A stretch of DNA of 64,000 nt from IMG/VR virus record IMGVR_UViG_3300029705_000031. One strand, written 5' to 3'. The first letter of the stretch is position 1, and every line of letters starts with the position of its first letter. This stretch comes from a virus. Lineage: Duplodnaviria; Heunggongvirae; Uroviricota; Caudoviricetes. Made by a program: the position numbers and the translations under genes. The notes under the pieces were generated by a model, which searched no databases, was not told the origin of the DNA, and was given only the letters and a program-made list of their open reading frames with translations. This document shows, in pieces, positions 7,442 to 49,984 of the stretch.

Positions 7442-7736
7442 TATAGTTTCCTCCCTTCTTCTCTAAAATAACAACATTATTTATGGATTTTTCTTCTTTT
7501 CCATTTTTACTATAAAATTTTAAAGTTACGGTACTACCAGGTTTATAAAATCCATAAATATAGTCGCCAAGTCTTCCATCTTTATCTTCACTATAAAGTA
7601 ATGTAGGCAAGGATAGGCCGTTAAAGTCATCCTCAACGGCCCATCTATTATATTTCTTACCTATTACATTATTTTTATCTAAAGAAAGTCTGGTTCCCAT
7701 AACGAAATTTTCAATATAAATAATGTAATTTTCCAT
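7434..7736 (-). CDS. hypothetical protein (100 aa)
   Basis: ORF overlapping start of downstream gene by 8 nt. Confidence 0.5.
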   Translation of the reverse strand: MENYIIYIENFVMGTRLSLDKNNVIGKKYNRWAVEDDFNGLSLPTLLYSEDKDGRLGDYIYGFYKPGSTVTLKFYSKNGKEEKSINNVVILEKKGGNYNV

Positions 7737-7758
7737 ATAGTATTAAACCATCCTTTCT

Positions 7759-11945: not shown

Positions 11946-12908
11946 TTAACTACGACTTAATACACGAGTAATTTCAGTGTATAAATCTAGAGCATCTTTG
12001 TTAATTGTACTATCAACTAACTGATCTCTATATCCTCTAATGTTAAAGATACAAGAAGTTATAATAACTTCTAATAGTCTTTGATAATTTTCTATAACAA
12101 ATATAGAATCTTCACCATAAAGATTCATGAACTCATTTAAGAATACTCTTAGATTTAGCTTATTTAATACGTCAAAGTATTCAGATAATGCTTTAAAGAA
12201 AGTTTCTAATGATTCATAATTCTCTTTAGGGAAATCTAAATCTGTACTAAGCATTAGTTTCTTAGGACTATTACCAGAAGTGCAAGCATAAGCAATATCG
12301 TTAGTTGCATCATTTTCTGGTTGTTCTAATACATAAAGTAGGAAGAACTTAGCTAATAGATAACTAATACGGTCTGACTTCTCAGGCATTAGATTGATTG
12401 CATATAGTTTATCTAATACTTTTCTCATTAGCTTTACATAGCATTCAGCAGAAAGTTTTTTAATCTTACCATTCATAGTAAATTTTCTTTCTGTTTTTTG
12501 TAACTCTCTAGAGATATAAGCACATTCTAGATAACCATATAGTTTTTTATTATCTATTCTAACTTCACCTTGTTTGCTTTTAGTAGCACCTATAGACTCT
12601 AGATTTACTACAGCAGTTATGTCATCCTTAAGAACTCTATTCTTTATAAGAAATATTGGAACTAATCTGGTTAGTTTTACATGATCTGAAAAAACAGTTG
12701 TTATTTCTTTATTTTCATAAGAATTGATAACTTGTTGCTTTAAGGTAAATGAAAAACGTCTTTTAATGATATCGATTTCATTTTTAAAATATTCAGCATC
12801 TACTAGATCTTTTTCCCAATCTATTTTCTTTACATTTTCTCTAAAGTTTTTACCTACTTTTTCATCTTTTCTAAATAGGTAAGTATCACTTAATCCTTTC
12901 AAGCACAA
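11946..12908 (-). CDS. hypothetical protein (320 aa); first gene of minus-strand operon
   Basis: ORF preceded by 130-nt AT-rich divergent intergenic region. Confidence 0.55.
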   Translation of the reverse strand: MCLKGLSDTYLFRKDEKVGKNFRENVKKIDWEKDLVDAEYFKNEIDIIKRRFSFTLKQQVINSYENKEITTVFSDHVKLTRLVPIFLIKNRVLKDDITAVVNLESIGATKSKQGEVRIDNKKLYGYLECAYISRELQKTERKFTMNGKIKKLSAECYVKLMRKVLDKLYAINLMPEKSDRISYLLAKFFLLYVLEQPENDATNDIAYACTSGNSPKKLMLSTDLDFPKENYESLETFFKALSEYFDVLNKLNLRVFLNEFMNLYGEDSIFVIENYQRLLEVIITSCIFNIRGYRDQLVDSTINKDALDLYTEITRVLSRS

Positions 12909-32336: not shown

Positions 32337-33866
32337 ATGGCGACTAAAAAGAATCTAACATATAACGAAGATAGTATTAAAGTCCAAGAATATCCTGATA
32401 ATGTAAGATCTAATCCTACAGTCTATATCAGTAGTCTTGGTAAAGAAGGTAATACGCATCTACTAAGAGAAGTAATTGATAACTCTATTGATGAATTCCT
32501 AAATGGTTTTGGTAAAACAATTACAATTGAAATTTCCAATAAAAAAGGTGTATTTAGAGTAATTGATGAAGGTCGTGGTGTTCCTCCTAAATCTATTGAA
32601 AGAGCATTTACTACATTACATGCTTCAGGTAAATTCGATAAAGATAGTTATAGCACATCAGGTGGTCAGCATGGTCTTGGTAGTACATGTGTTAATGCAC
32701 TTAGTAAGTATTTCCTTGTCATTACACATGAAGGTGGTCATGAATACTCTCAAAGATTTGAATATGGTAAGAAAGTAACTGAACTAAAAGATTTAGGAAA
32801 GTCTGATAAGGTAGGTACTATTGTAGAGTTTTGTCCTGATGAATCTGTAATGGATACATTTGAGATTGACATTGAATCAGTCAAAGATGAATGTAAGATG
32901 AAGTCTTTTATCAATAAAGGACTTACTATCATTATTAAGGACATGGATGAAAAGAAACAGGCTAAGTATTATCATAAAGATGGTATTGAGGAATACGTAC
33001 AGTTAAATGCTAAGAAAGCTCTATTTAATCCTATTACATTCTCTACATCAACTACTGTTAACAAGGCTAATAAAGAATTGAATGTAGAAATCGATTGTTC
33101 CTTTACTTATGATAACTCTACTGATCCTATCAATATTAAATCCTTCTGTAATTCCATTTATACTAGTGATGGCGGTACTCATGAAACTGGTTTTAAAACA
33201 GCTCTTACTAGTTTGATTAAAAAGTATATTGCTGATAATAACCTACTAACTAAAAAAGATGCAAATCTAGACATTACTGGTGATTCAGTTCAGGAAGGTG
33301 TAGTAGCAGTAGTATCTATCAAACATCCTCATCCGATGTATGATCAGCAGTCTAAGAAAAAGCTTAACTCTACAGAAGTTTCTGGTGCAGTAATGAAAGC
33401 AGTTAATGCAGAATTTAGTAAGTGGATTGAAACCCATGCTAAAGAAATGAAAGTACTTTGTACTAAAGTAATTGAATCTGCAAAGGCTAACAGTGCTGCT
33501 AAGAGAGCTAAAGAACTAGCTAATAAGAAATCTGAAAATGGAATTACTGCTGTTTCTGATCTATCAAAATTAGCTAACTGTATTTCTAAGAAACCTGAAG
33601 AATGTGAACTGTTTGTAGTTGAGGGTAATTCTGCAAGTTCAAGTGCTAGAAATGGTAGAGATAAGCAAACTCAGGCTGTTTATGCTCTAAGAGGTAAGAT
33701 TCTCAATACTAACAATCTAGCTGAAACTAAGATTTTTGAAAATAAGGAACTATCAGATTTGATTTATATCTTAACTGGTAAGAAAACTGCAATTGGTAAG
33801 AATTTCAATGTTGAAGACATGAAGTATCATAAACTGGTAGCCTTGACTGATGCTGACGATGACGGT
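32337..33866 (+). CDS. type IIA DNA topoisomerase ATPase subunit (GyrB/T4 gp39-like), exon 1 (GHKL ATPase + transducer + first half of Toprim, ends ...LTDADDDG)
   Basis: GHKL motifs EVIDNSIDE, IDEGRGVP, GGQHGLGSTCVNALS; Toprim VEGNSASSSARNGRDKQTQAVYALRGKILN; ORF stops 3 codons after DADDDG where GyrB continues SHIRTLLLTFFYR. Confidence 0.85.
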
Positions 33867-35157
33867 AAATGACACATTAAGTCTGCATCAGTGAGAAATT
33901 TTCTAACAATACATTAGTATTAATGTTAGGAGGTTTCATTCAAATGAAAAATGAAAAAGAAACTAAAGAAAGATATGCTTCTGGTATTGAAAATTGTAAA
34001 AAACAAGCTCAAAATCTTAAACAAAAAGCATCTGAAAAATTTTTAAGTAAAGTTTACGAACAAGTTGGTGATGATTATACTTTTCTGGAAACTTATGTAA
34101 CGAGTAAAACTAAACTCTGGGTAATACATAATGTTTGTGGACATAAGTATAGAGTAACTCCAAATGAGTTTACTTCTCATAAAAGACGTTGTCCAAACTG
34201 TGCAAATAAAAAAAGAGTACTTAATACTGGAATAAAACCTCATACATTAGAATCTATTATTGAAAGTGTAAAAGAATTATCTAATGACGAATATGAGGTA
34301 GTTAGTAATGAGTATGAAAATAATAAAGAAAAAATTTGGGTTAGACATAAAACATGTAGTTATTCATACCTTGTTCGTTATAATGACTTTCAGCAAGGAT
34401 ATAGATGTCCTTTATGTGCTGACATGAATAAAAGTCAGAATAATTCTAAACCAATACAGGATATTAAAAGTGTTCTAGATTTTAATAAAATTGAGTATGA
34501 ATCAGAAGTGTCATTTGAAGAATGTGTAGACAAACGTTTTCTTCCATTTGATATATTGGTTTATACTGATAAAGTCAATGATGAATACTTTTTAATTGAG
34601 TATGATGGACAACAACATTCTGATCCTAATGCACAATTTGGAGGAACTAAAGAAGAAAGACTTATTAGATTTGAGCTAACTCAAAAACATGACACTATAA
34701 AAAATGCTTTTTGTGAAGAAAACAGTATAAAACTTTATAGAATTTCTTATAAAGAAGATTTGATGAGCAAACTAAGAAGTATATTGGAAGAAAATAATCT
34801 AATTTGACTTGCAGTGAATGCCGTCTAAAAACCTAGTTAACTGCGGGAAACTATCAATAAACACTATTTACTAAACTAAGATAGTAATATACTTAGTGGC
34901 AATGGGTAACTCCAAAGATATAGTAAAAAGAATAGTGTTTGATACAATCGACGCAACGAAGTATCCTACATTTAGTAAAAGATAGGATATGAGTTCAACG
35001 ACTATCGAAACCAACTAACTTAATGTTAGTAATAAGGTAAGTTGAAATACTTACACGAAGGGAGTAGAGTAGGGAAATGTAAATTACAAAGTACCGAAAA
35101 GCTAGGCTATACTAATTTAGTATAGAAAATATAGTCTAAATTATGCAAAGTAATTTG
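33867..35157 (+). mobile_element. group I self-splicing intron (ORF in P1 loop) interrupting the GyrB-like gene inside the Toprim DxDxD motif
   Basis: IGS gccgtc (34818..34823) complementary to exon end gacggu with U.G at the splice site; P-like element aactgcgggaaa (34840..34851); R element gttcaacgactatcgaaacc (34993..35012); S element aaaatatagtc (35127..35137) giving P7 gacta/tagtc; omega-G 35157; exon 2 restores ...HIASLILGFVYRH. Confidence 0.8.
33923..34807 (+). CDS. intron-encoded putative homing endonuclease: three CxxH/CxxC zinc-finger-like repeats + C-terminal Vsr/DUF559-like (EDxHD-type PD-(D/E)xK) nuclease domain
   Basis: repeats CGHKYRVTPNEFTSHKRRCPNCA, CSYSYLVRYNDFQQGYRCPLCA; C-terminal FDILVYTD...LIEYDGQQHSD...RLIRF pattern typical of Vsr-like nucleases; AGGAGG RBS. 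Confidence 0.5.
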   Translation: MLGGFIQMKNEKETKERYASGIENCKKQAQNLKQKASEKFLSKVYEQVGDDYTFLETYVTSKTKLWVIHNVCGHKYRVTPNEFTSHKRRCPNCANKKRVLNTGIKPHTLESIIESVKELSNDEYEVVSNEYENNKEKIWVRHKTCSYSYLVRYNDFQQGYRCPLCADMNKSQNNSKPIQDIKSVLDFNKIEYESEVSFEECVDKRFLPFDILVYTDKVNDEYFLIEYDGQQHSDPNAQFGGTKEERLIRFELTQKHDTIKNAFCEENSIKLYRISYKEDLMSKLRSILEENNLI

Positions 35158-35982
35158 CTTCACATTGCAAGCCTTATCTTAGGATTTGTATATAGACATG
35201 CTAAACCCATTTTGGAAAAAGGTTACATGTATATTGCAATGCCTCCTCTTTATTCTATCATTGAAAGAAATAAGAAACGTTATTTCTTAAATCAAGAGGA
35301 ATATGATGCATATATTGAGGAAAAGATTTTTGAAAACTATGTATTTAGTTGTAATGAGATAGGTTTAAATAAGACTAAAGCTAAAACCATTCTTAAGAAT
35401 TTTGAAACTTACAAAAACAAAGTAAGTGAACTATCTACTAGTACAGGTATCAATATGTATTTAATTGATGATGTATGTGATTATTTACGTACTAATGAAA
35501 ATGCAACAAGTAAGGATATTGTGAATTTATTAAAACAGATTGGTGATTTTGAATTCTTTAAGAATGATGAAGGAAATTCTGAGATTAATGGTCTTTATGA
35601 TAATAGCTTTGTAAATGCAGTAATTAAGGATTTAGTAAAGTCTGCTAAAAAAGCTAAGAAGATTCTAGAAGATCTTAGTATTCCTGAAGAAGTATTCATC
35701 AATGATTATCATCTATCAATTAAGAACTATCAAGACATGTATAACAAGGTTACACCTAAGTCCAGAAGTCGATTCAAAGGCTTGGGAGAAATGGATGCTA
35801 ATGAACTTTGGGAAACTACTCTTGATCCTTCAGTTAGAAACATTATGCAAGTTGTACTATCAGATGAAGAAAAGACAGATGATACTATGGATACACTACT
35901 AAATTCTAATAGTAAGTATGCAGACAAACGTAAAGTATTCTTAATGAAAAATCAGCAAAAGATTAAGGAATTAGAAATCTAA
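35158..35982 (+). CDS. type IIA topoisomerase ATPase subunit (GyrB-like), exon 2 (rest of Toprim and C-terminal domain)
   Basis: HIASLILGFVYRHAKPILEKGYMYIAMPPLY aligns with GyrB HIRTLLLTFFYRxMxxLIExGxVYIAQPPLY; exact 3' splice site +/- a few nt. Confidence 0.8.
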   Translation, partial: LHIASLILGFVYRHAKPILEKGYMYIAMPPLYSIIERNKKRYFLNQEEYDAYIEEKIFENYVFSCNEIGLNKTKAKTILKNFETYKNKVSELSTSTGINMYLIDDVCDYLRTNENATSKDIVNLLKQIGDFEFFKNDEGNSEINGLYDNSFVNAVIKDLVKSAKKAKKILEDLSIPEEVFINDYHLSIKNYQDMYNKVTPKSRSRFKGLGEMDANELWETTLDPSVRNIMQVVLSDEEKTDDTMDTLLNSNSKYADKRKVFLMKNQQKIKELEI

Positions 35983-37076: not shown

Positions 37077-37334
37077 ATGGAAAGCTTAAAGAATGTAATA
37101 GAAAATGAGCATATTTTTATAGTAGAAGTTGAAGAAGTTTTACAAAAGTTAGTTGCTATTAAAGCAGATAGTAAAGAAGAAGCATTAAAAAGAGCTAAAG
37201 AAAAATACAAAAATTGTGAACTTATCTTAAATGAAGAGGATTTTAAAGAAACTAGCTTTAAGATTTATGAATACAATGATCCTAGAGAAATCATAGAACT
37301 AGTAATCACAGCTTTAGCTAATAGAACTTGTTAG
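37077..37334 (+). CDS. hypothetical protein (85 aa)
   Basis: ORF with GGAGAG RBS. Confidence 0.4.
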   Translation: MESLKNVIENEHIFIVEVEEVLQKLVAIKADSKEEALKRAKEKYKNCELILNEEDFKETSFKIYEYNDPREIIELVITALANRTC

Positions 37335-38377
37335 AAAGGACTAATGATGAAATGACTATTGAAGAAATCAAAAATATGGTTAATGGTGAATCATACGATT
37401 TTCTAAGAACTAATCCACATCTTAAGGATAGAATCATTTTTCTTACATTAGGTGGTAGCTATGCCTATGGTACAAATAATGAAAATTCAGATGTAGATGT
37501 TCGTGGTTGTGCTCTTAATAGTGTTAATGATATCCTCGGTATGTCAAATTTTGAACAGGTAGTAAATACAACAACAGATACGACAATCTATAGTTTTAAT
37601 AAATTGATTAAACTCTTAATCAGCTGCAATCCTAACACCATTGAATTACTTGGTTGTAAACCAGAACACTATTTTTACATTACAGATATTGGTAAAGAAC
37701 TAATAGACAATAGAAAAATTTTTCTTTCTAAAAAAGCAGTTGAGGATTCTTTTGGTGGATATGCAACTCAGCAGCTTCGTCGTTTAGAAAATGCAATAGC
37801 TAGAGATAAACTATCACAGGAAGATAATGAAAGACACATTAGAAATTCCATGCAAAGATCTTTAAATCACTTTATTGATAAATATGGAATTTCTGATGGT
37901 AATGGTGTTGAACTCTTTATAGATAAAAGTAATCGTGATGATTTAGATTGTGAAATTTTCTGTAAGATTTACCTTGACAAAATTCCAGCAAGAGATTTTA
38001 CTGTTATGTTAAACTCTCTATCAAATGTAATTAGTAGTTATGGAAAACTAAATCATAGAAATCATAAGAAAGATGATGCACATCTTAATAAACATGCAAT
38101 GCATCTAATTAGACTGTATCTAATGGCTATTGACATTCTAGAAAAAGAAGAGATCAATACTTATAGAGAAAATGATATAGAATTTCTATTAAGTATTCGT
38201 AATGGAAGATATCAAAATGAAGATGGTACTTACCATAAAGATTTCTTTGATATTGTATCTGATTATGAAAAACGTTTAGTATATGCTAAAGAAAATTCTA
38301 GTCTTCCTATGGAGCCAAATATGGAACTTATTGAAGAATTTACAATAGATGTAAATAGGAGGTCATTAGATGTATAA
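37328..38377 (+). CDS. Pol-beta-superfamily nucleotidyltransferase (349 aa), translationally coupled to CCA-adding enzyme
   Basis: hG[GS]x9-13Dh[DE]h signature LGGSYAYGTNNENSDVDVRG near N-terminus; 8-nt overlap with next gene. Confidence 0.5.
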   Translation: MLERTNDEMTIEEIKNMVNGESYDFLRTNPHLKDRIIFLTLGGSYAYGTNNENSDVDVRGCALNSVNDILGMSNFEQVVNTTTDTTIYSFNKLIKLLISCNPNTIELLGCKPEHYFYITDIGKELIDNRKIFLSKKAVEDSFGGYATQQLRRLENAIARDKLSQEDNERHIRNSMQRSLNHFIDKYGISDGNGVELFIDKSNRDDLDCEIFCKIYLDKIPARDFTVMLNSLSNVISSYGKLNHRNHKKDDAHLNKHAMHLIRLYLMAIDILEKEEINTYRENDIEFLLSIRNGRYQNEDGTYHKDFFDIVSDYEKRLVYAKENSSLPMEPNMELIEEFTIDVNRRSLDV

Positions 38378-39713
38378 TGTCTCTTTCAATATTCCAGATA
38401 ATGTGAATGTTATCTTAGATACTTTACATGATAATGGATATGAAGCATATATAGTCGGTGGATGTGTTAGAGATAGTCTGTTAGGATTACAACCAAAAGA
38501 TTGGGATATTTGTACTTCAGCACTTCCACCACAAATACTAGAAGTTTTTAATGATAAGCGTATAATTGAAACAGGTTTAAAACATGGAACAGTTACTATA
38601 GTTCTAGATGACGAACAGTATGAGATTACAACATATCGTACTGATGGAAACTATTCTGATAATCGACATCCAGATTCAGTAACATTTGTTAGTAACCTTA
38701 AAGAAGATCTTGCAAGAAGAGATTTTACTATAAACGCTATGGCTTATAACAAACAAGATGGTTTGATTGACTATTTTAATGGTTATAAGGATTTAAAGAA
38801 TGGTATAATTTCTTGTGTTGGAGATGCTAATGAACGTTTTAATGAAGATGCGTTACGTATTATGAGAGCTTTACGTTTTTCTTCTAGATATGAAATTCCA
38901 ATTGCAGAATCCACACAAGAAGCTATTCATAAAAATAAGGATTTACTTAAAAATATTGCCATTGAACGCATTAATAGCGAATTATGTAAATTGTTACTTG
39001 GTTATGGTGGATCCTATATTTTAGCAAACTATAAAGATGTGATTACAACTATTATTCCAGAATTAAAACCTTGTATTGGATTTAATCAAAATAATCGTTA
39101 TCATGAATACGATGTTTATGATCATATCAGACATGCAGTATACAATTATGGAGGTTCGGATTTAGTAGTAATTATATCACTCTTACTTCATGATATTGGC
39201 AAACCTCATTGTTATACTGAAGACTGTAACGGAGGACATTTTTATGGTCATGGAGTAGTAAGTCATGATATAGCAGAGAAAGTATTAGACAATTTAAGAT
39301 TTGATAATAAAACAAAACATGATGTTCTTGAATTAGTATTATACCATGATTCAACTATTGAACCAACACCAAAAACAGTACGTAGATGGTTAAATAAAAT
39401 TGGTGAAAAACAATTTTTAAGACTTCTTGATATTCGTGAAGCAGATATGTTAGCACACTCCAAAGATACACAGAAGTCTAGATTAGAAAGAAATGATAAA
39501 CTTAGAAAAATTTTAGCTGAAATAATCCAATCTAATCAATGTTTTACTATAAAGGACTTAGCAATTAATGGTAAAGACATTATTGCTATGGGTGTACCTG
39601 AAGGTAAACGTATAGGTGAAATACTAAATACAGTCCTTAATGAAGTTATTAATGAAACTATTGTAAATGAAAGAAAATTTTTATTAGATTACGTATATTA
39701 TAATCTAGTATAG
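38370..39713 (+). CDS. cca: tRNA nucleotidyltransferase (CCA-adding enzyme/poly(A) polymerase family) with HD domain
   Basis: IVGGCVRDSLLGLQPKDWDICT, RRDFTINAMAY head-domain motifs and LLLHDIGKP HD motif. Confidence 0.8.
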   Translation: MYNVSFNIPDNVNVILDTLHDNGYEAYIVGGCVRDSLLGLQPKDWDICTSALPPQILEVFNDKRIIETGLKHGTVTIVLDDEQYEITTYRTDGNYSDNRHPDSVTFVSNLKEDLARRDFTINAMAYNKQDGLIDYFNGYKDLKNGIISCVGDANERFNEDALRIMRALRFSSRYEIPIAESTQEAIHKNKDLLKNIAIERINSELCKLLLGYGGSYILANYKDVITTIIPELKPCIGFNQNNRYHEYDVYDHIRHAVYNYGGSDLVVIISLLLHDIGKPHCYTEDCNGGHFYGHGVVSHDIAEKVLDNLRFDNKTKHDVLELVLYHDSTIEPTPKTVRRWLNKIGEKQFLRLLDIREADMLAHSKDTQKSRLERNDKLRKILAEIIQSNQCFTIKDLAINGKDIIAMGVPEGKRIGEILNTVLNEVINETIVNERKFLLDYVYYNLV

Positions 39714-39727
39714 AAGGAGAACACATA

Positions 39728-42700
39728 ATGGCACAGAATGTAATTCAAAAGGATATTGTTGATATTCAAAAAGACAATATGCTTCAGTATATGATGTCTC
39801 TAATGTATGATAGAGCGATTCCTGATATTAGAGATGGATTAAAACCAGTACAGAAATTTATCCTTTGGAGTTGTTACAGTTCAGGTTTCTTTCCAAATAA
39901 ACCCCATGTAAAGTGTGCTAAGATTGCTGGTGATGTTATTGCTAACTTCCATCCACATTCACTAGATGCAGCTTATGAAGCATTGTGTAGACTTGCTCAG
40001 ACTCATTCTATGAATATTCCATTAATTGATTTTCATGGTGCATGTGGTTCTATTGATGGATCAGGCGCAGCAGCTCATAGATATTGTGTGACTGGTGATA
40101 CCTTAATTAGTCTACCAAATGGTAAATTAAAAAGAATTGATGAACTAATTGAAAATTCTAATGATGATTCAACTATGGATGTAGATTTTGAAGTATTAGA
40201 TTTTAAAAATAATCCAGTACATGTTTCTAAATTCTTTAATTCTGGAAAACATGATATAATCAAGATTAAAACCAGTTCTGGTTGTACTATTAGAGGTAGT
40301 TATAATCATCCTATCTTGTGTTTATATAAAAATCCTACTGATGGTCTACCAGAATTCAGATGGACAACTTTAGATAAAATTGAAACTGGATGTTATGCTG
40401 TTATAGCATCTAAATTCAATAATTCTTTTAATGAAACTATAAGTGAAGAAGAAAAGCTTAAAGCAATTTTCTTTGGTGGAATGGTTTCTGAAGGAGGTTT
40501 ATCTAAAAATCAGAGATACTATAGAGTAAGTTTCTCCAATCAAGATAATGAATACTATAATCTAGTGGAATCTGGATATAAAGTATATCTTGAAGAGAAT
40601 AATCTAAGTAATTTGAATATTCGTATTAATCCAAATGCTCGTGGTGGAGTTAAAGAATTTTGTACTGAAGACAAAAATCTTCATAATTTAGTTAAAGAAC
40701 AAATTGGTGAAGATGCTCATAATAAACAGATTCCTCCCTATGTTCTAAACTCTAATTTAGAAATTCAAAGATGGTTTTTAAAGGCACTTTTTGAAGGAGA
40801 TGGAGGAGTAACATGTCGTTTAGATAAAAGAAGAAAAGATAATGTTACTGGACATGTATTTTATTCTACTTCTTCAACAAAACTTTTGAATGAATTAAAA
40901 ATTCTATTAATGAATTTTGGTATTAGAACTAAAGTTACTAAAGACAGATCTAATTTTAAACTTACAATTTATTCTTTAACTGACATGAAAATTTTTAAAG
41001 AAAAAATAGGATTTTTAAGTGATAGAAAAAATAAAGTATTGAATGAATTAGTAGAAAATAAAGAAATACAAATTACTAAGTCTTATGGTGTTTCTTCTTC
41101 AGATAAAATTCCATATCTTGCCGAATTCATTAGAAATAATAAACTTAGAAATACACATTATTTAAAGTCTCATAGCCTAAATTGTAAACAAGATATAGAT
41201 AAACATAATGATGTAATTAAAGATTCTTTGAGTTATGAAGAATATTTTAAGCTTATGAGAAAACTTGAAGTTTTAGATTTATACCATTATGAAGAAATTA
41301 TTGAAGTTGAAAGACTACCAGAAGAAGTAGTATATTCAATTAAAGTAGATTCTAATGATCATAGTTTTATTAGTAATGGTTTTATTAGTCATAATACTGA
41401 GGCAAAACTTAGTAAATATGGATTAGATATTCTTAGTGAAATCGATAAGGATGCTGTTGATTTTGAAAAGAACTATGATGTAACTAAAGATCAACCAACT
41501 GTTTTACCTGCAGTAATTCCTAATATCCTATTGAATTCTTCAATGGGTATTGCAGGTGGTTATGCTTCTTCAATTCCTCCACATAACATCAAGGATGTAT
41601 GTAATACTGTATGTGAACTAATTGATAATCCTAATATGTCAGTTCAAGATGTAGCTAAGAAACTAGTTCCTGACTTTCCTACAGGTGGTATCTTATGTTC
41701 TAAGAAGGAAATTGAAAAAGCTTACATTACTGGTCAGGGTTCAGTAAAACTAAGAGGTAGAGCAACTATCAATAGAAATAAGAATAACACATCAGAAATT
41801 GTTATTACTGAAATTCCATTTATGACTACAATTGGTCCTCGTATGAGTGGCACATCTACTAATACTGAGGGTGGTTTGATTAATTCCATTGTAGCTAAGA
41901 TTAAAGATGGTACAATTGATGGAATTAAGGATATTCACGATATTTCTGATAAGAATGGTCTATGTATTAAAGTTTTTATCAAGAAAGATTATGACCCTGA
42001 TGTTATTCTAAATCAGTTATACAAGTTCACTCAGTTAGAATCTACTTTTAAGATCATTCTAGTTTGTAAGAATGGTAATTTCTTTAAGGTTTATAACATC
42101 AAGGAAATTCTAACTGAATGGATTGAATTCCGTGTATCTACTATTAGACGTATCATTACACATGATATCAAGAAAGCTAAGTATCGTGAACATATTCTAG
42201 AAGGTCTATTAAAAGCATTAACTGATATCGATACTGTTATTAGTATCATTAAGAAAGCTAATGGAAGAGCTGATGCTAAAGTAAAGTTAGTTAGGAAATA
42301 TGGATTTACTGATTTACAGGTTGAAGCTATTCTTGACATGAAACTTTCTCAGTTAAACTCTCTAGATGGAAAGAAGCTAGAAGAAGAAAAACTAAGTAAG
42401 CAAAAAGAAATTCTAGAACTAAAAGAGAATTGGAAAGAATCCAATATCTATGAAAGAATTAAGAAAGAACAGAAAGAATTTGCTAAAAAATATGGTAGTG
42501 AAAGAAAGACTACTGTAGAAGAGATTGATACTGATATTACTACTGAAGACATTATTGCTGATGAAGATACTTTGATTGTCATTACTCAGGGTAATTACAT
42601 TAAGCGTATTTCAAATGAGTTTAGAACTCAGAAACGTGGTACTCAGGGTATTTCTATTGGTGATAACTCTATCACAGAAATGTTCTCTGCTTCTACTAAG

Positions 42701-43543
42701 GATCATCTACTATGTTTTACTAATACTGCCAGAGTCTATGATTTAAAAGCTTATGACATTAAAGAATCTAAGGATCTTAAAGCTAAGGGTTTAAGAATTG
42801 AAAATTATCTAAATCTAAAAGAAAATGAAACAGTTACTAACATTCTATGTATCAATAATACACAGATGAATGATAATGAATCCTTCCTAGTTTTCGCTAC
42901 TAAGAATGGTATGATTAAGAAAACTAAGTTAGAAGAATTCAATAACATTCGTTCTACTGGTATTATTGCTTTGATGTTAAAGTCTGGTGATGAACTAGTT
43001 TCTGTAAAGTATATTGATACTAGTAAACCTATGCAAGATATCTTGATTTCTACTAAAAATGCTCAGACAGTTAGATATGATCATGAAGAAATCAAAGAAT
43101 TAGGTAGAAATACCTATGGTGTAATTGGTATTAATCTAGAAAATGATGACCGTATTACAGATATGTGTATCATTGAAGATGACGAACAACTAATCTTCTT
43201 TGCTACTAAAAATGGTTTAGGTAAAACTATTCGTATTACTGATAATGTAGAAAAAGTTGATCCCAATACTAAAGAAAAAGTAATCATCAATGATGGTTTT
43301 CCTAGACTAAAACGCTCATCCAACATTAAAGGCAGACTATGCATGAAACTAAAAGAAAATGACGAATTAGTTTCAATGGTAGCTATCAATAATGTAAATG
43401 ACGAACTAATGATTGTTACTGATAGCAAACTATTAGTAGTCAATACTGAAGAATTCAAAGAACCTTTAAAGAGACCTACTTATGGTAAGAAATTAGTTAG
43501 TTTGACTAATGAAGACTATGTAAGAAAGGTGATTCTAAAGTGA
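39728..43543 (+). CDS. type IIA topoisomerase DNA breakage-reunion subunit (GyrA/ParC-like; precursor containing an intein)
   Basis: N-terminal GyrA blocks HPHSLDAAYEALCRLAQ and AAAHRY(active-site Tyr)...TEAKLSKYG split by intein; C-terminal beta-pinwheel-like repeats. Confidence 0.85.
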   Translation: MAQNVIQKDIVDIQKDNMLQYMMSLMYDRAIPDIRDGLKPVQKFILWSCYSSGFFPNKPHVKCAKIAGDVIANFHPHSLDAAYEALCRLAQTHSMNIPLIDFHGACGSIDGSGAAAHRYCVTGDTLISLPNGKLKRIDELIENSNDDSTMDVDFEVLDFKNNPVHVSKFFNSGKHDIIKIKTSSGCTIRGSYNHPILCLYKNPTDGLPEFRWTTLDKIETGCYAVIASKFNNSFNETISEEEKLKAIFFGGMVSEGGLSKNQRYYRVSFSNQDNEYYNLVESGYKVYLEENNLSNLNIRINPNARGGVKEFCTEDKNLHNLVKEQIGEDAHNKQIPPYVLNSNLEIQRWFLKALFEGDGGVTCRLDKRRKDNVTGHVFYSTSSTKLLNELKILLMNFGIRTKVTKDRSNFKLTIYSLTDMKIFKEKIGFLSDRKNKVLNELVENKEIQITKSYGVSSSDKIPYLAEFIRNNKLRNTHYLKSHSLNCKQDIDKHNDVIKDSLSYEEYFKLMRKLEVLDLYHYEEIIEVERLPEEVVYSIKVDSNDHSFISNGFISHNTEAKLSKYGLDILSEIDKDAVDFEKNYDVTKDQPTVLPAVIPNILLNSSMGIAGGYASSIPPHNIKDVCNTVCELIDNPNMSVQDVAKKLVPDFPTGGILCSKKEIEKAYITGQGSVKLRGRATINRNKNNTSEIVITEIPFMTTIGPRMSGTSTNTEGGLINSIVAKIKDGTIDGIKDIHDISDKNGLCIKVFIKKDYDPDVILNQLYKFTQLESTFKIILVCKNGNFFKVYNIKEILTEWIEFRVSTIRRIITHDIKKAKYREHILEGLLKALTDIDTVISIIKKANGRADAKVKLVRKYGFTDLQVEAILDMKLSQLNSLDGKKLEEEKLSKQKEILELKENWKESNIYERIKKEQKEFAKKYGSERKTTVEEIDTDITTEDIIADEDTLIVITQGNYIKRISNEFRTQKRGTQGISIGDNSITEMFSASTKDHLLCFTNTARVYDLKAYDIKESKDLKAKGLRIENYLNLKENETVTNILCINNTQMNDNESFLVFATKNGMIKKTKLEEFNNIRSTGIIALMLKSGDELVSVKYIDTSKPMQDILISTKNAQTVRYDHEEIKELGRNTYGVIGINLENDDRITDMCIIEDDEQLIFFATKNGLGKTIRITDNVEKVDPNTKEKVIINDGFPRLKRSSNIKGRLCMKLKENDELVSMVAINNVNDELMIVTDSKLLVVNTEEFKEPLKRPTYGKKLVSLTNEDYVRKVILK
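40085..41395 (+). mobile_element. intein (437 aa) with LAGLIDADG homing-endonuclease domain, inserted immediately after the catalytic tyrosine codon of the GyrA-like gene
   Basis: block A CVTGDTLISL, block B GSYNHPIL (TxxH), two LAGLIDADG motifs AIFFGGMVSEGG and FLKALFEGDGGV, block G VYSIKVD...ISHN followed by +1 Thr (TEAKL); removal restores AAAHRY-TEAKLSKYG. Confidence 0.9.
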
Positions 43544-44869: not shown

Positions 44870-45033
44870 ATGAAGTATTCAGAATTGGTCGATCAGGTAT
44901 TCGTAACTTCGGTGGCAGGTGTTGTACCTTATATCGAAGGACATGCTGGTGTTGGTAAGTCGCAGATGATTAGAGACGTAGCAAATCTCTATCGTGAAAA
45001 AGGATTTGAGGAAGTACCTATCGTTACCTTATT
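44870..45033 (+). CDS. MoxR-type AAA+ ATPase (AAA_5 family), exon 1 with Walker A
   Basis: Walker A EGHAGVGKSQ; ORF ends 10 codons past proposed junction; exon end ccttattc pairs with intron IGS gaataagg (45945..45952). Confidence 0.7.
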
Positions 45034-46217
45034 CGGTGCGCTACTAAAAGAGGGAGAGCTTAACTAAAGGTTACAATTCTTTAATAAAGGGGATGTTTTT
45101 ATGAGAGTAAAAACAAAACCTAATGTTGATGTTGGAGTTACTTTCACAAATAACGATGGTTTAGATTTTATAGTAGATGAGATAGTAGAAATAAAAAAGT
45201 ATGAAAAAATGTGTAAAATCACATTTTTAGAAAGTGGATATTCAGCTATAGTTGGTAGTAGTTCTATAACAAAAGGAAGTGTTAAAGATTACTATCAGAT
45301 AACTATTCTTGGTGTTGCTTGTTTTGGTGATGCTAAAACAAATCCAAGGCATACTAAGCAAACATATAGAATTTATAAAAACATGTTACATCGTTGCTAT
45401 GATGAAAAAAACAAAGACTATAATTCATATGGTGGTATTGGTGTTTCTGTTTGTTCTAATTGGTTGAACTATAACAATTTTCTAAATGACCTTTATGATA
45501 TTGAAGGATTTGATTTTGAAAAATTTGAAAATGGTGAAATTAGTATGGACAAAGATAAGAAACAAAAATACATTCCTAAGAATGAAAGAATTTATAGCAA
45601 GGAAACATGTTGTTTCATATCTACTAGTGAAAATTCTACTATAAGAAATTTCGAAAATAGTCTAAATCCAGAAAAAAGAAAAATTCTTATAACCTATCCA
45701 GATGGTAATACTGAAACAATAGATAGAACAGAATTAAAAATCTATTGTGAAAAAAAGGGTTTTACAAATCCAAACCATATTAGAAGAGTTTTAAGAAAAG
45801 AACGTAATTCTTACAAAAACATTAAATTTGAACTTGTAGACTAATGGGTTCTTCATTAACAAACCTCATGAACTTAAGGTAAGATCTTAAGGTGTGTTAC
45901 TTATCGTATTAAGTAATGCTAACGGTATCAGTGGAATAAGGATAGTTTACTATCACGAAGCAGCTGACTAAGAGACTCTACGGTCCAGAAATGGATAGCA
46001 GACAATACCGTGCCAAGCTTCTCAAAAGAGATGAAGGTGTACAGACTATCGAAACCAACTAGTTTTAAACTAGTAATAAGGTAAGTTGAAATACTTACAC
46101 GAAGGGAGTAGAGTAGGATAAACAATCCGAAGGATGAGGATCTAGATTGTTTCTAGATAAAAGATAGTCGAAAAATCACATAGAAATATGGTAGTGAAAA
46201 CTACATGATTTTTGCGG
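45034..46217 (+). mobile_element. group I self-splicing intron interrupting the MoxR-like ATPase gene (splice boundaries approximate, +/- 5 nt)
   Basis: IGS-like gaataagg following cagtg as in intron 1; R element gtgtacagactatcgaaacc (46036..46055), S element aaaagatagtcg (~46160..46171); ~75 nt core 46044..46117 near-identical to 35000..35073 of intron 1 with compensatory stem change (ctaac/gttag vs ctag/ctag); no canonical U.G at 5' splice site identified. Confidence 0.7.
45101..45844 (+). CDS. intron-encoded protein (247 aa), probable homing endonuclease/DNA-binding protein with conserved YxIYxxMxxRCY...YGGIGVxVCxxW motif
   Basis: located wholly inside intron; motif recurrent in phage intron/HEG-associated proteins; no clear HNH or GIY-YIG catalytic signature found. 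Confidence 0.35.
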   Translation: MRVKTKPNVDVGVTFTNNDGLDFIVDEIVEIKKYEKMCKITFLESGYSAIVGSSSITKGSVKDYYQITILGVACFGDAKTNPRHTKQTYRIYKNMLHRCYDEKNKDYNSYGGIGVSVCSNWLNYNNFLNDLYDIEGFDFEKFENGEISMDKDKKQKYIPKNERIYSKETCCFISTSENSTIRNFENSLNPEKRKILITYPDGNTETIDRTELKIYCEKKGFTNPNHIRRVLRKERNSYKNIKFELVD

Positions 46218-47199
46218 TGGTATTCCCGTTCCTAGACGTGATGAAAATAGCAAGAAAATGATCAACGATTACACTACACATGTTAAAATGCAGCAGATTT
46301 TGGATAATGATACTAGAGGTATCAACACAATCCTCTTTATTGACGAGCTAAATAGATGTGAAGCAGCAGTGAATCAGGAACTCATGCAGTTGATTCTTGA
46401 CCGTAGAATCAATGAAACGATTCTTCCTGATTCTTGTATTATTGTTGCAGCAGGTAACCCTGAGTATGACGATGATAACGACTATCAGGTTCAGGTTATG
46501 AACGACGCCATGAAGAATCGGTTTGTTAAGTATACACTTGAAGCTGATGTAAAGGACTGGCTTAAGTGGGCATCTAACACAAAGGATGATAACAAAACTG
46601 GTACAGAAGCAATTGATTCTGACGTAATTGAGTTTATTGCAGAAATGCCTAATCTACTTCACGATCCTCATAGTAAAGAAGACATCAAGCCCACTCCTAG
46701 AGGTTGGGAACTTCTTTCTAAGGTAATGAGACAGATTAAGAATTACTATCCTGAAGATTTTGAAAGTATGTTGTTTGAAGCAGCAAAGGGTGTAGTTGGT
46801 CAGACTCCTGCAACCCAGCTAATTGGTTTCCTGAGAGATAAGAAGAATCCTATTACTTCTACTAAGGATATTTTCAAGTCTTCTGATAAGGAATTTAACA
46901 ATAACGTACTTAACAAGATTAAGGGTGATACATCCACTAGACAGTTCGTTATCATTGATCGTTGCATTCGTTACATTAGCGAAAACATTAAGGAATTCAA
47001 TGATAAGAAGACTGGTGAAAATAGCTGTAAGAGATTCATTGAAGTATGTAAGGTACTTCCCAAGGACATCATGGTTGGCGTTCTAAAGAACATTGGTGTT
47101 AATCATAAGAATATTCATGATACTTTTACTAAGTATGATGACTATATGGATCTATTCTTTGATACCAATAAGAAGACTATGACTGCGGCAAACATCTAA
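46218..47199 (+). CDS. MoxR-type AAA+ ATPase, exon 2 (Walker B, sensor and AAA lid)
   Basis: ILFIDELNRCEAAVNQELMQLILDRR...IIVAAGNPEYDDDNDYQV...AMKNRF = classic AAA_5/MoxR Walker B-sensor blocks; in-frame extension upstream of first ATG back to 46198. Confidence 0.75.
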
Positions 47200-47318: not shown

Positions 47319-48488
47319 TTGACTGATAAAGAATTGGAATTTGTAAAAAAGTTTCTAGATTTTAAAGAAGCTACTGAAAACAGTTACTACTATGATCGTT
47401 ATATAACACCAAGTGATGTTATGAAGTTTTTACAACCAGATGCAAGAAGAAACTATAAAGATGCTTGTAACATACTTTCTTATGAAGATAGAATAGATTT
47501 AGCAAAAATCTATCTAGAAAGAATAGTAAGTATGACATTTAGTAACAATTTTGGTTACTATAAAAATAGTCATAATAGTAATAAAGGTTACTATGAAACG
47601 ATGTTATCCAATAGTGGAATTGACTGTTATGTTGATGTAGCTAAAACAAATGAAGAAGGTTTTCCATTAGAGTTCAACAAGAAAAATGAGAACTTTTTCT
47701 ATATCTTCTTAGATGGTCTCTATAAGTATTGGGATAAGCAGTTAGAATACTATAAAAACAATCAACAAGAAGCTGTAGAGATTATGTTTGAATCTCAATG
47801 TAATGGTACTTGGTTTTACTATAACCATTTCAACTATAACTTCCTAAAAGTATATCTAGAATATCTGAAATCTAGAGGATTTAAGATTAACATCTTTGAG
47901 CTTTTCAATAAGAAACTCAAAAGAGTTATAAAAAGTATGGATAAAGGTTTAGCACATTATACTAAATCTTATCTATTTGAAAGTTTAGCTATAATCTTTG
48001 ATTTCTATAATGCTATTCTAGATATCTATGGAGAAGATAATGAAAAAGTAATCAATAAGCTACAGAACAATCTAATCACTATTTTCAAAGATGAAATAGA
48101 AACTGAGAAATTTGGTTTCATGAATACTTTCTTATACACAAAGAGGTGGACTAACAATAGTAAGAATAGAAGTTCTGAATCAACTAGTGATGTAGTTCAT
48201 TTCTGGGAGTATGTTTACAATAATGAACTAAATCCTACTTTAAAACGTATCTTCTTGAATGCAATAATTCATACTTGGAATAAGTCACCTATTCCAAAAG
48301 TAAGAAACTCAATGCAGTTACTAGTGGATTTAGCAACTTATAAATATGATGGAAGATCAGGATTTCCATACCATAATCAAAGATTGTTCTATAATGACAT
48401 AATTGCAAATGCAAACATGCTAAAGAAATCTGTTAAATCTATACTATTTTCTAAAGCAATTCTAGAAGAAGGAGGTTTATTTCTATAA
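47319..48488 (+). CDS. hypothetical protein (389 aa), TTG start, between MoxR ATPase and VWA genes
   Basis: ORF with AAAGGAG RBS; stop overlaps next start (TAATG). Confidence 0.5.
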   Translation: MTDKELEFVKKFLDFKEATENSYYYDRYITPSDVMKFLQPDARRNYKDACNILSYEDRIDLAKIYLERIVSMTFSNNFGYYKNSHNSNKGYYETMLSNSGIDCYVDVAKTNEEGFPLEFNKKNENFFYIFLDGLYKYWDKQLEYYKNNQQEAVEIMFESQCNGTWFYYNHFNYNFLKVYLEYLKSRGFKINIFELFNKKLKRVIKSMDKGLAHYTKSYLFESLAIIFDFYNAILDIYGEDNEKVINKLQNNLITIFKDEIETEKFGFMNTFLYTKRWTNNSKNRSSESTSDVVHFWEYVYNNELNPTLKRIFLNAIIHTWNKSPIPKVRNSMQLLVDLATYKYDGRSGFPYHNQRLFYNDIIANANMLKKSVKSILFSKAILEEGGLFL

Positions 48489-49984
48489 TGGCAGCTAAAG
48501 TTAGTACTAAGAATACTAGTTTAGAAGACATGAATGTAGAAGAACTTAAGAAAAGATGCTTAGAATGTGTTAACAACAAGGATCTTAATACTGCAACAAG
48601 ATACTTTAAAGAGTACATTGAATTGATCATCTTCAATCTATTGATTTCAGATCACTTCTTTGGTACTTTCATTATCCATATGCAAAGAGAAATTCGTTAT
48701 GATTTCTATGCACCTGCAGGTGTAACTATCAAAAAAGGTTCTCCATTATTGGTAATAAATCCTGCTCTACTACTAAGATATACTCATAAAGAAGTTAAAG
48801 CTATTCTAAAACATGAGGTTTATCATCTACTTCATTTCCATCTTCTAAGAAGTAAAGAGAATAACAATCGTTTTGATAGCTATATTGAGAATATCGTTAT
48901 GGACGTTGCTATCAACCAGTTCATTCCAGAAATTCCTGATGAATGTGTTACGTTTGACAATTTCTGTAAACAGTTTAAACTAGATCCTTACAGAGTATCT
49001 CGTAAAGAATCTTTTGAGTATTACTTAGAACTAGTAAAGAATAGTGATGTATACAAAAAAGATTCTGAACAGTATAAGCAAATGATGAAGGATATTCAGG
49101 ATATTCTTGATCAGCTTAATGAAAGTATGGGTCAGAATGGTAATGGTTCTGGTAGTGGCTCTGGATCTGGTGATGGTAAAAATGGTAAAGCTTCTGGAAA
49201 TGGTTCTGGAAATGGTGGAAAATCCATTCAGGAAATGTTAGATGAAATTCTAGATAAGAAATATCCTATTGATCATTCTATCTGGAAAGAATCTGATAGT
49301 TCCGATGTTCAGAACATCAAGGAGATCGTTAAGCATATGGTAAATGAAGCAATCAAGAATTGTGGTAATGTACCTGGCGATCTACAAGAGCTAATCAATA
49401 AGATTAATGAACCTACTATCATTAAGTGGCAGGATGAACTAAAGAGACTTGTTGGTTCTGTTAAGTGTCCTTATAAACTTACTCCTCTAAGAAGACCTAG
49501 AAGACAGCCTGATAGAATGGATCTTAAGGGTAAAATGTCTGATAGAAAAGTTAAAATCGCAGTTGCTATTGATACTTCTGGTTCTATGGGTGAAAGAGAA
49601 CTTCAGTTTGTATTCTCTGAAATCTTTAAGATTCTAGAATTGGTTAAGTTTGAAATGACAATCATTGAATGTGATTATAACGTACAGAGAGTTTATAAGG
49701 CTAAGAACCTGCAAGAAGTTGACATGAATGTCAAGGGACGTGGAGGTACAGCATTTACACCTGTCTTCAAATATCTTAAGGAAGAAATGCGTCAACAAGA
49801 TAAACCTGACTTACTGGTTTATTTCACTGACGGATGGGGCGAGTCTTGTCTTGACGAAAAGTATCATATTAGTAGTAGTACCAAACTAATGTGGGTATTA
49901 ACAGGACGTAAGAAAGATTTATCATGTTCTGGACATGGTGCTTGGACTAATAAGATCAAAGAACTTAAGATGAACGAAAGATAA
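48488..49984 (+). CDS. VWA-domain protein with N-terminal putative metallopeptidase-like (HExxH) domain; typical partner of MoxR ATPases (DUF2201-like architecture)
   Basis: HEVYHLLH motif; MIDAS motif KIAVAIDTSGSMG; Gly/Ser-rich linker; gene order MoxR-x-VWA. Confidence 0.6.
   Translation: MAAKVSTKNTSLEDMNVEELKKRCLECVNNKDLNTATRYFKEYIELIIFNLLISDHFFGTFIIHMQREIRYDFYAPAGVTIKKGSPLLVINPALLLRYTHKEVKAILKHEVYHLLHFHLLRSKENNNRFDSYIENIVMDVAINQFIPEIPDECVTFDNFCKQFKLDPYRVSRKESFEYYLELVKNSDVYKKDSEQYKQMMKDIQDILDQLNESMGQNGNGSGSGSGSGDGKNGKASGNGSGNGGKSIQEMLDEILDKKYPIDHSIWKESDSSDVQNIKEIVKHMVNEAIKNCGNVPGDLQELINKINEPTIIKWQDELKRLVGSVKCPYKLTPLRRPRRQPDRMDLKGKMSDRKVKIAVAIDTSGSMGERELQFVFSEIFKILELVKFEMTIIECDYNVQRVYKAKNLQEVDMNVKGRGGTAFTPVFKYLKEEMRQQDKPDLLVYFTDGWGESCLDEKYHISSSTKLMWVLTGRKKDLSCSGHGAWTNKIKELKMNER

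Follow-up and report, generated by a model that had tools for sequence, protein, structure and literature searches.

In an AT-rich genome of uncultured, jumbo-phage-like type, the gyrA gene very likely encodes a canonical intein of class 1, which is located at the gyrA-a site and carries a LAGLIDADG homing endonuclease; it would splice itself out and, plausibly, also home. The gene was analysed in a window of 64,000 nucleotides, i.e. the whole stretch of DNA considered here. Our reading draws on the observed anatomy, homology and insertion site of the insert, on the lack of it in close relatives and on the selection acting on the host gene; the splicing steps and the endonuclease activity are proposed on the basis of known intein chemistry and of the homing model. 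The main value of the results lies in correct annotation, i.e. of a GyrA precursor with a 437-residue intein, not of a 1271-residue 'gyrase'; the gyrA-a family also gains a divergent, apparently intact, endonuclease-bearing intein.

Anatomy of the GyrA precursor and its splicing domain

The GyrA precursor comprises 1271 residues and is encoded at 39728-43543 on the + strand, as are all the features described below, with no frameshifts or stops; a Shine-Dalgarno-like AGGAG (39715-39719), read from the sequence, lies 8 nt 5' of the ATG at 39728. The insert occupies codons 120-556 (40085-41395), is in frame and stop-free, and runs from an N-terminal CVTGDTLISL to a C-terminal FISHN, with its in-frame translation exactly matching the coordinates and sequence proposed in the first-pass annotation. 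It is preceded by an N-extein of 119 residues (39728-40084), which ends in GAAAHRY, the last residue being the catalytic Tyr, and is followed by a C-extein of 715 residues plus the stop codon (41396-43543), which begins with the +1 nucleophile Thr (TEAKLSKYG) and contains the rest of the DNA_topoisoIV region and the GyrA C-terminal beta-propeller repeats, as assigned from the ORF and from Pfam and NCBIfam. The Pfam DNA_topoisoIV and NCBIfam gyrA models span the junction, at which intein-less relatives read AAxRYTEARL. The calculated masses of the intein (50.5 kDa) and of spliced GyrA (94.3 kDa) agree with the earlier estimates of ~50 and ~95 kDa. The GC content of the intein is 25.8%, compared with 31-36% for the extein and a window average of 28.8%, and its GC3 is 10% versus 20% for the host gene, i.e. 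the intein is more AT-rich. A free-standing endonuclease gene was considered and rejected, as the frame is continuous and neither a stop nor a start lies at either junction.

In profile searches, the insert scored 50.1 bits against Pfam Intein_splicing, for which the cut-off is 35.8, and was also matched by the NCBIfam models intein_Nterm, intein_Cterm and GyrA_w_intein (E 1e-68 with only the intein as query); in a PDB sequence search its Hint domain matched 1am2, the Mxe GyrA intein (E 3.1e-27). Within the Hint domain, the N-terminal half (residues 1-108; 40085-40408) aligns with residues 3-107 of the Mxe GyrA intein, is all-beta in the predicted model, and contains block A (C1-V-T-G-D) and block B (S72-Y-N74-H75-P). 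The C-terminal part (residues 400-437; 41282-41395), which is also matched by intein_Cterm, aligns with Mxe residues 162-199 and contains block F (VYSIKVDSNDH426SF) and block G (NGFISH436N437). The splicing residues are all in place, i.e. C1, S72/N74/H75, D422 and H426 (the latter followed by S-F), the penultimate H436, the terminal N437 and, directly after it, T+1. The block A nucleophile, Cys1, is invariant in an alignment of 26 sequences; His75 is likewise invariant and Asn74 nearly so. Ser72 replaces the usual Thr of block B, as it does in most of the metagenomic relatives; the intact motif set described previously thus stands with respect to block A, block G (HN plus Thr) and the two LAGLIDADG motifs, but not block B, which is of the SxxH rather than the TxxH type. 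The AlphaFold model of the insert is confident (pLDDT 92.4, pTM 0.92), and its predicted Hint fold, composed of the N- and C-terminal segments, superposes on the structures 1am2/4oz6 of the Mxe GyrA intein (TM 0.84-0.86, normalised to the target).

The junction, AAAHRY/C...HN/TEAKL, has the AAxRY/TE form of the gyrA-a allele. The N-terminal RY/C is present in all 30 GyrA-hosted relatives in which it is readable, and HN/TE wherever the C-terminal junction is present; relatives with the identical junction come from hosts with GC contents of 28-68%, and the insertion position is the same in 14 loci and in the annotation of the phage Madawaska. A single unbroken alignment joins the entire precursor to the NCBIfam model GyrA_w_intein (NF038098; residues 12-1172 on model positions 6-1147), the intein corresponding to model positions 117-537. 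NF038098 is of the 'exception' type, being tuned to proteins from actinobacteria, and the combination of a score below its cut-off (835.6 versus 1850 bits) with an end-to-end alignment implies a protein that is outside the actinobacterial subfamily, but which still contains a GyrA intein. This alignment, together with the junctions of the 30 relatives, bears out the proposal that the insert occupies the site of the mycobacterial GyrA inteins, straight after the catalytic Tyr.

By analogy with characterized inteins, translation would give a 145-kDa precursor, in which the Hint halves (residues 1-108 and 400-437) would come together. An N-S acyl shift at Cys1, helped by the block B His75, would be followed by attack of Thr+1 on the thioester to give a branched intermediate, from which cyclisation of Asn437, helped by His436, would free the intein (50.5 kDa). 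The active site (AAAHRY-TEAKL) of the 94-kDa GyrA would then be rebuilt by an O-N shift.

The LAGLIDADG endonuclease domain

Two LAGLIDADG helices (residues 121-136 and 225-239) end in acidic residues. Motif 1 (block C, A127-IFFGGMVSE136-GG; 40463-40498) lies at the C-terminal end of the first helix, with the putative catalytic acid E136 and G137 being nearly invariant in the 26-sequence alignment; motif 2 (block E, W230-FLKALFEGD239-GG; 40772-40807) lies at the end of the second, with the putative catalytic acid D239 nearly invariant and G238 and G240 invariant. Pfam LAGLIDADG_3 (PF14528) matches with 51.4 bits (cut-off 22.5) over residues 227-309, i.e. the second half only, the first half being below Pfam detection and seen by motif and model only; among the PHROGs no family matches the intein. 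The predicted secondary structure, H-E-E-H-E-E-H repeated twice, is that of a pseudo-dimeric LAGLIDADG fold, and Foldseek searches with the model returned I-DmoI and I-Tsp061I (target TM 0.66-0.77; ~0.7-0.77 for I-DmoI) and also PI-PfuI. The helical region that connects the endonuclease core to block F (residues 313-397; 41021-41275), as defined by the secondary structure of the model, is the least conserved part with respect to P0052, the metagenomic GyrA with the closest intein. The earlier assignment of the insert as a LAGLIDADG-type intein is thus backed by Pfam, NCBIfam, the Mxe match, the predicted model and Foldseek.

Since neither of the catalytic acidic residues is missing, the endonuclease is plausibly active. 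The free intein may use the double-LAGLIDADG core (E136, D239) to cut the empty site in the intein-less gyrA of a co-infecting relative, and recombinational repair of the cut gyrA would then copy the intein in, i.e. homing.

A less probable reading, but one to be taken seriously, is that the intein is splicing-competent with a dead endonuclease, i.e. that it is late in the homing cycle and has been kept since precise deletion is rare and splicing preserves GyrA. Although the first LAGLIDADG half is missed by Pfam, both helices, E136 and D239 included, are preserved and nearly invariant across the relatives, and the model of the endonuclease core has high confidence, with matches to both I-DmoI and PI-PfuI. 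Degeneration does occur in this lineage, as the Staphylococcus-phage intein (374 residues) apparently lacks block C, whereas the window intein is full length at 437 residues. The GC3 of the intein is relaxed or shifted relative to that of the extein and no near-identical intein copies were found in any collection searched, the best having 45% identity, i.e. nothing points to recent spread. In the comparison of the window intein with that of P0052, by contrast, the endonuclease motifs belong to the most highly conserved stretches. The intein dN/dS for the window versus the P0052 contig L007 is 0.63, an unreliable value given that synonymous sites are near saturation in AT-rich sequence. Alignment-based scans of viral and metagenome contigs gave no intein nearer than 44%, and hence no close pair for estimating purifying selection on the endonuclease.

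Intein-less relatives and selection on the host gene

The nearest GyrA relatives (P0039-P0042; 84-89% extein identity) have an uninterrupted RYTE, reading RYTEARLSKYG; three are of 834-835 residues (P0039, P0040, P0042) and the fourth, P0041, is a shorter call of 811 residues. P0043 (666 residues) has 93% identity over 80% of the query, in a sequence that does not include the insertion site. One of the nearest relatives is located on a 299-kb contig. DNA alignment with three intein-less loci (L003, L004, L005; 79-84% nucleotide identity) reveals a clean 1311-nt insertion in the window, corresponding exactly to the intein. Among 13 relatives at ~50% extein identity (P0044-P0056) one alone, P0052, has an intein, which is at the same site; such a sporadic distribution is typical of homing elements. 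A megablast search of the phage collection with the complete gene gave no match, and a whole-precursor search of viral contigs gave no related locus. The intein-less alleles and the window constitute a ready occupied/empty site pair for studies on endonuclease specificity.

The extein dN/dS is 0.09-0.10, no different from that between two intein-less relatives (0.10). Given that the insert splits the active site and that the host gene is under strong purifying selection (dN/dS ~0.1), splicing appears to be required and, judged from the sequence, is very probably functional. It is correspondingly very unlikely that the 437 residues are a permanent, non-excised GyrA domain, i.e. a splicing-dead insert, or that the gene is a pseudogene dispensable to the phage. 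The first-pass annotation had raised the prospect of a segment conserved and non-excised in homologous GyrA proteins; we found it to be wholly missing in the closest homologues, and a conserved domain was rejected on the basis of the clean 1311-nt absence. Every splicing residue is, furthermore, intact, and the catalytic Tyr is parted from the conserved TE(A/C)RL block, such that the unspliced protein should be inactive, whereas the low extein dN/dS and freedom from frameshifts and stops argue against a pseudogene.

Other mobile elements of the window and comparison with known inteins

The gyrB gene (32337-35982), located by tblastn of uninterrupted relative GyrB proteins, is interrupted by an intron-like insert (33867-35157) with an HNH endonuclease ORF (33923-34807; PHROG HNH endonuclease, 1.5e-53). 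A weak group I intron match in this insert (34773-35160) was obtained in a narrow scan only; a 16-kb E-value scan missed the gyrB intron, an Rfam gathering-threshold scan of the window returned no RNA families, and aragorn returned no tRNAs. A second intron-like insert lies in an ATPase gene (44870-47199). The earlier view that two introns and the intein occupy both topoisomerase subunit genes is therefore correct in that gyrB is also interrupted by a mobile element, but the gyrB insert is single and the other is not in a topoisomerase gene. In relatives, the same genes carry different elements, with two introns in AR9 gyrA and, in Madawaska, a gyrA intein and a gyrB intron. The window illustrates the heavy colonisation of AR9-like jumbo-phage replication genes by homing elements.

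The closest intein, that of P0052 (JGI contigs Ga0179936_1183019 (L020) and Ga0326514_10006374 (L007)), has 438-439 residues and 44-45% identity; it was missed by an intein-only protein search and surfaced only via the extein search. It shares with the window intein the insertion site, an AT-rich (28% GC) gyrB-gyrA locus, and the blocks FxGGxVSEGG, WFLKALFEGDGG and DHSFIxxGFIxHN, but the exteins are only 51-56% identical and gyrB at the P0052 locus is uninterrupted. Neighbour-joining clusters the Madawaska intein with those of the window and P0052 at 98% bootstrap, in a single distance tree of 22 sequences in which long-branch or compositional artefacts are possible. An assembly chimera, in which a cellular GyrA intein was mis-joined to a phage contig, is extremely improbable, because, although the intein GC (25.8%) is somewhat off that of the extein, it is near the window average, the insert is precisely in frame and precisely at the canonical junction, the nearest relative resides in a related AT-rich gyrB-gyrA locus, and the tree places the intein with jumbo-phage rather than cellular inteins.

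The inteins of the Staphylococcus jumbo-phage GyrA proteins (Madawaska, MarsHill, Machias, PALS_2, S6 and vB_SauM-UFV_DC4; GenBank) have the same junction (SRY/CLTGE...HHN/TEMRL) and a LAGLIDADG_3 domain, and the gyrB intron of Madawaska is a further similarity, both phages being within the wider AR9/PBS1-like jumbo-phage assemblage. They differ in having only ~28-31% identity with the window intein, in being of 374 residues, seemingly without the first LAGLIDADG motif, and in residing in very divergent host GyrA proteins. These inteins are discussed in PMC10638138, citing Korn et al. 2021; for Staphylococcus jumbo phages, annotated and published examples of GyrA inteins at this site already exist, and the window intein is a divergent addition, with at most 45% identity to anything found. 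We suggest, speculatively and as something we would on balance not expect, that the window, P0052 and Staphylococcus jumbo-phage inteins may represent a distinct, old, phage-resident gyrA-a lineage, which cycles by homing and loss in AR9/PBS1-like jumbo phages. Were this so, jumbo phages could be both a reservoir and a vehicle for the gyrA-a intein between cellular hosts as disparate as actinobacteria, Campylobacterales, Aquificae and DPANN archaea.

With respect to overall architecture, the predicted Hint domain with its inserted double-LAGLIDADG domain resembles the bifunctional PI-PfuI, TliVMA/PhoVMA and PI-SceI (Foldseek E 1e-22 to 1e-13), which, unlike the window intein, are located in other host proteins and at other insertion sites, and which have 12-19% identity with it. 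The Mxe GyrA intein (PDB 1am2/4oz6) is the best-studied gyrA-a intein and a workhorse of protein engineering. Like the gyrA-a inteins of M. leprae, M. kansasii and other mycobacteria, it shares with the window intein the same host protein and the RY/C...HN/TE junctions; the Hint homology (~40% identity over residues 2-108 and 400-437) extends to Cys1, the block B N-H, the block F D..H, the terminal HN and Thr+1. The window intein differs in having Ser72 rather than Thr in block B and in coming from a phage-like genome of 29% GC, not an actinobacterium. Mxe GyrA is, moreover, a mini-intein of 198 residues without an endonuclease, whereas the window intein keeps a full double-LAGLIDADG domain.

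The gyrA insert, its fold and its insertion site

The GyrA precursor is encoded by a single, uninterrupted plus-strand ORF of 1271 aa (39728-43543), with the sequence AGGAG read 8 nt upstream of its ATG. The insert proposed in the first-pass annotation is present exactly, as an in-frame segment of 437 aa (CVTGDTLISL ... NGFISHN; 40085-41395, plus strand), with both junction sequences matched: translation gives ...GSGAAAHRY before it and TEAKLSKYG... after it. In silico removal of the insert (50.5 kDa) from the 144.8-kDa precursor leaves an 834-aa protein of 94.3 kDa. The insert is more AT-rich (GC 25.8%, GC3 10%) than the flanking GyrA parts, or exteins (39728-40084 and 41396-43540; GC 31-36%, GC3 20%), the window mean being 28.8%.

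Pfam, NCBIfam, PDB sequence, AlphaFold2 and Foldseek results agree that the segment is a LAGLIDADG intein, as had been proposed. Above Pfam gathering scores, the outer parts match DNA_topoisoIV (E 6e-111, in two stretches) and GyrA C-terminal repeats, and the inner part matches Intein_splicing (precursor residues 127-556) and LAGLIDADG_3. The NCBIfam model for intein-containing DNA gyrase subunit A spans the whole precursor in one alignment, the 437-aa segment falling at model positions 117-537, and both generic intein models, N-terminal and C-terminal, scored above their cut-offs. Among PDB sequences, the GyrA mini-intein of Mycobacterium xenopi (1am2) matches best (E 3e-27); it aligns to intein residues 2-108 and 400-437, which form the two Hint halves, and leaves the endonuclease region as a gap. 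The AlphaFold2 model, built with an alignment of 26 relatives as input, is confident (pLDDT 92.4, pTM 0.92); its termini are beta-rich and its central region repeats twice the order helix-strand-strand-helix-strand-strand-helix. Searched against the PDB with Foldseek, it matched the bifunctional intein endonucleases TliVMA (E 9e-22), PI-PfuI, PhoVMA and PI-SceI. Further matches were I-DmoI, a monomeric enzyme of the double-LAGLIDADG type (target TM about 0.7-0.77), and the M. xenopi GyrA intein (target TM 0.84-0.86).

Mycobacterial GyrA inteins are well known at the gyrA-a site, and the sharing of that site, claimed from the sequence alone, is borne out by the uniformity of the junctions (marked here by a slash) among relatives. 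A search with the intein only returned 38 proteins, the strong matches all being GyrA fragments; the N-terminal junction is readable in 30, all of which have ...AAxRY/C[VIL][TS]..., and the C-terminal junction is HN/TE wherever present. The same junction occurs in 14 further loci on viral and metagenome contigs ranging in GC from 28% to 68%. The insertion point is thus the classical gyrA-a site.

Intein-less relatives, splicing and endonuclease competence

A search with the spliced extein identified five very close relatives (P0039-P0043, 84-93% identity), none of which has an intein domain. Three are full-length calls of 834-835 aa (P0039, P0040 and P0042) and P0041 has 811 aa; these four are continuous across the site (...AA(M/H/Y)RYTEARLSKYG...), whereas P0043, a fragment of 666 aa, does not cover it. 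At the DNA level, three intein-less loci of these relatives (L003, on a 299-kb contig, L004 and L005) are 79-84% identical to the window extein and colinear over the junction, the 1311-nt insert being the sole structural difference. That the insert is a conserved, non-excised GyrA domain is thus ruled out for this lineage, the comparison with insert-less homologues that the first-pass annotation had called for having found them uninterrupted at RYTE. The occupied site of the window and the empty sites of these relatives make a naturally occurring pair for biochemistry. Among 13 more distant proteins (P0044-P0056, about 50% identical over the extein), 12 lack an intein and one, P0052 (1270 aa), carries it at the same site; its intein is the closest to that of the window (45% identity, compared with 52-56% for the exteins). 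A scattered occurrence of this kind is expected from the homing cycle.

The proposed blocks A (Cys1), B (S72-Y-N74-H75-P) and G (H436-N437, then Thr+1, the first C-extein residue) and both LAGLIDADG motifs, i.e. block C (IFFGGMVSE136GG) and block E (FLKALFEGD239GG), were all found, as was block F (VDSNDH426SF); block B, however, has Ser in place of the Thr of the TxxH motif described earlier, a Ser common to most metagenomic relatives (GSYNHP). With the intein in place, the catalytic Tyr is cut off from the conserved block next to it, so GyrA left unspliced would be expected to lack activity. The extein is under strong constraint, with dN/dS of 0.09-0.10 between the window and intein-less relatives and 0.10 between two intein-less relatives. 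This constraint, along with the intact splicing residues, makes it very likely that the intein is splicing-competent.

The evidence that the endonuclease is active is weaker than that for splicing, although the balance tips somewhat in favor of activity. Its motifs, acidic residues and predicted fold are all intact, and few stretches are better conserved than these motifs between the window and P0052 inteins. In the AlphaFold2 model, each LAGLIDADG helix has one of the acids at its C-terminal end, E136 in the first and D239 in the second, which is the canonical place of the metal-binding acids as established for LAGLIDADG enzymes. Against this, only the second LAGLIDADG half reaches the Pfam threshold, block C is visibly lost in a related phage intein, no close intein copies on which to gauge selection were found, and the dN/dS comparison with L007, a metagenomic locus of P0052, is saturated.

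Mobile elements in gyrB and neighboring genes

The first-pass annotation held that both type II topoisomerase genes carry mobile elements, including two introns; both gyrase genes do carry elements, but gyrB has one insert rather than two. The gyrB gene (32337-35982) is interrupted at 33867-35157 by 1291 nt within the Toprim DADDDG/LHI motif, with boundaries ...GGU/ and ...UUUG/ (U/...G/) and an HNH endonuclease ORF (33923-34807; phrog_559, E 1.5e-53). The insert has no Rfam match at gathering score; a narrow scan of 1.3 kb gave a weak Intron_gpI match (34773-35160; 18.8 bits, E 0.045), whose end coincides with the predicted 3' splice site. The gene is uninterrupted in L003, L005 and L020, the last a further locus of P0052.

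The second intron-like insert of the window is in an ATPase gene (44870-47199), not a topoisomerase gene; this insert, too, is probably an intron, and probably the second of the two previously referred to. This MoxR/AAA_5-like gene (phrog_1297) appears split into ORFs at 44870-45067 (profile 9-49) and 46258-47199 (profile 98-352), with an HNH endonuclease ORF between them (45101-45844; phrog_2081, E 8e-47). A few kb downstream lies a free-standing 498-aa HNH endonuclease (48488-49984; phrog_1314, E 4e-60), one more in a 20-kb stretch unusually dense in homing-type nucleases.

The interval between gyrB and gyrA has genes for a nucleotidyltransferase of RlaP-like type (37328-38377) and for an HD-domain enzyme that resembles CCA-adding enzymes and poly(A) polymerases (38370-39713). 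Since this interval holds only small ORFs in the close relatives L003 and L005, the RNA-repair-like pair is an insertion peculiar to the lineage of the window.

Comparison with known phages and GyrA inteins

The window codes for helicases resembling DnaB and Dda, ribonucleotide reductase, SbcD, an endolysin, several HNH endonucleases and a structural protein of the virion; neither tRNAs nor Rfam families at gathering score were found in it. The virion protein (11946-12908, minus strand; phrog_21032, E 2e-49) has matches, of about 28% identity, solely in the records of AR9/PBS1, vB_BpuM-BpSp, Listeria LPJP1, Staphylococcus jumbo phages and Yersinia phages, and the large ORFs next to it (39-3323 and 7759-11928) have no PHROG match. 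Given these matches and the relatives, whose contigs reach 299 kb, a distant member of the wider AR9-like jumbo-phage assemblage is a reasonable label for this uncultured virus.

GenBank records already annotate GyrA inteins in the Staphylococcus jumbo phages Madawaska, MarsHill, Machias, PB50, PALS_2, S6, DC4 and SA1. The DC4 gyrA intein has been reported with a LAGLIDADG_3 domain (PMC10638138), a paper in which Korn et al. 2021 is cited for the Madawaska and MarsHill inteins. The window intein is just 28-31% identical to those of the Staphylococcus phages. Madawaska also has an intron in its gyrB, comparable to the intron-like insert of the window; its GyrA intein (9001-10122 of the locus from MW349129.1), annotated at 374 aa, has no counterpart of the first LAGLIDADG motif (block C) in our alignment, so that its endonuclease may be degenerate, though the record says 'intein' alone. 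In Bacillus phage AR9, gyrA (6929-10070 of the locus from KU878088.1) is annotated as a three-piece join, i.e. with two introns and no intein; the mobile elements borne by this one gene therefore differ between related jumbo phages.

Neighbor joining of 22 gyrA-a inteins pairs that of the window with that of P0052 (L007) at 100% bootstrap and joins the Madawaska intein to them at 98%, with other AT-rich sequences placed apart; this hints at a phage-resident lineage of gyrA-a inteins, one distance tree not being strong evidence. The window intein is of modest interest and useful for annotation: it is a divergent addition to a well-known family, at the usual site and in a type of phage already reported to carry it.
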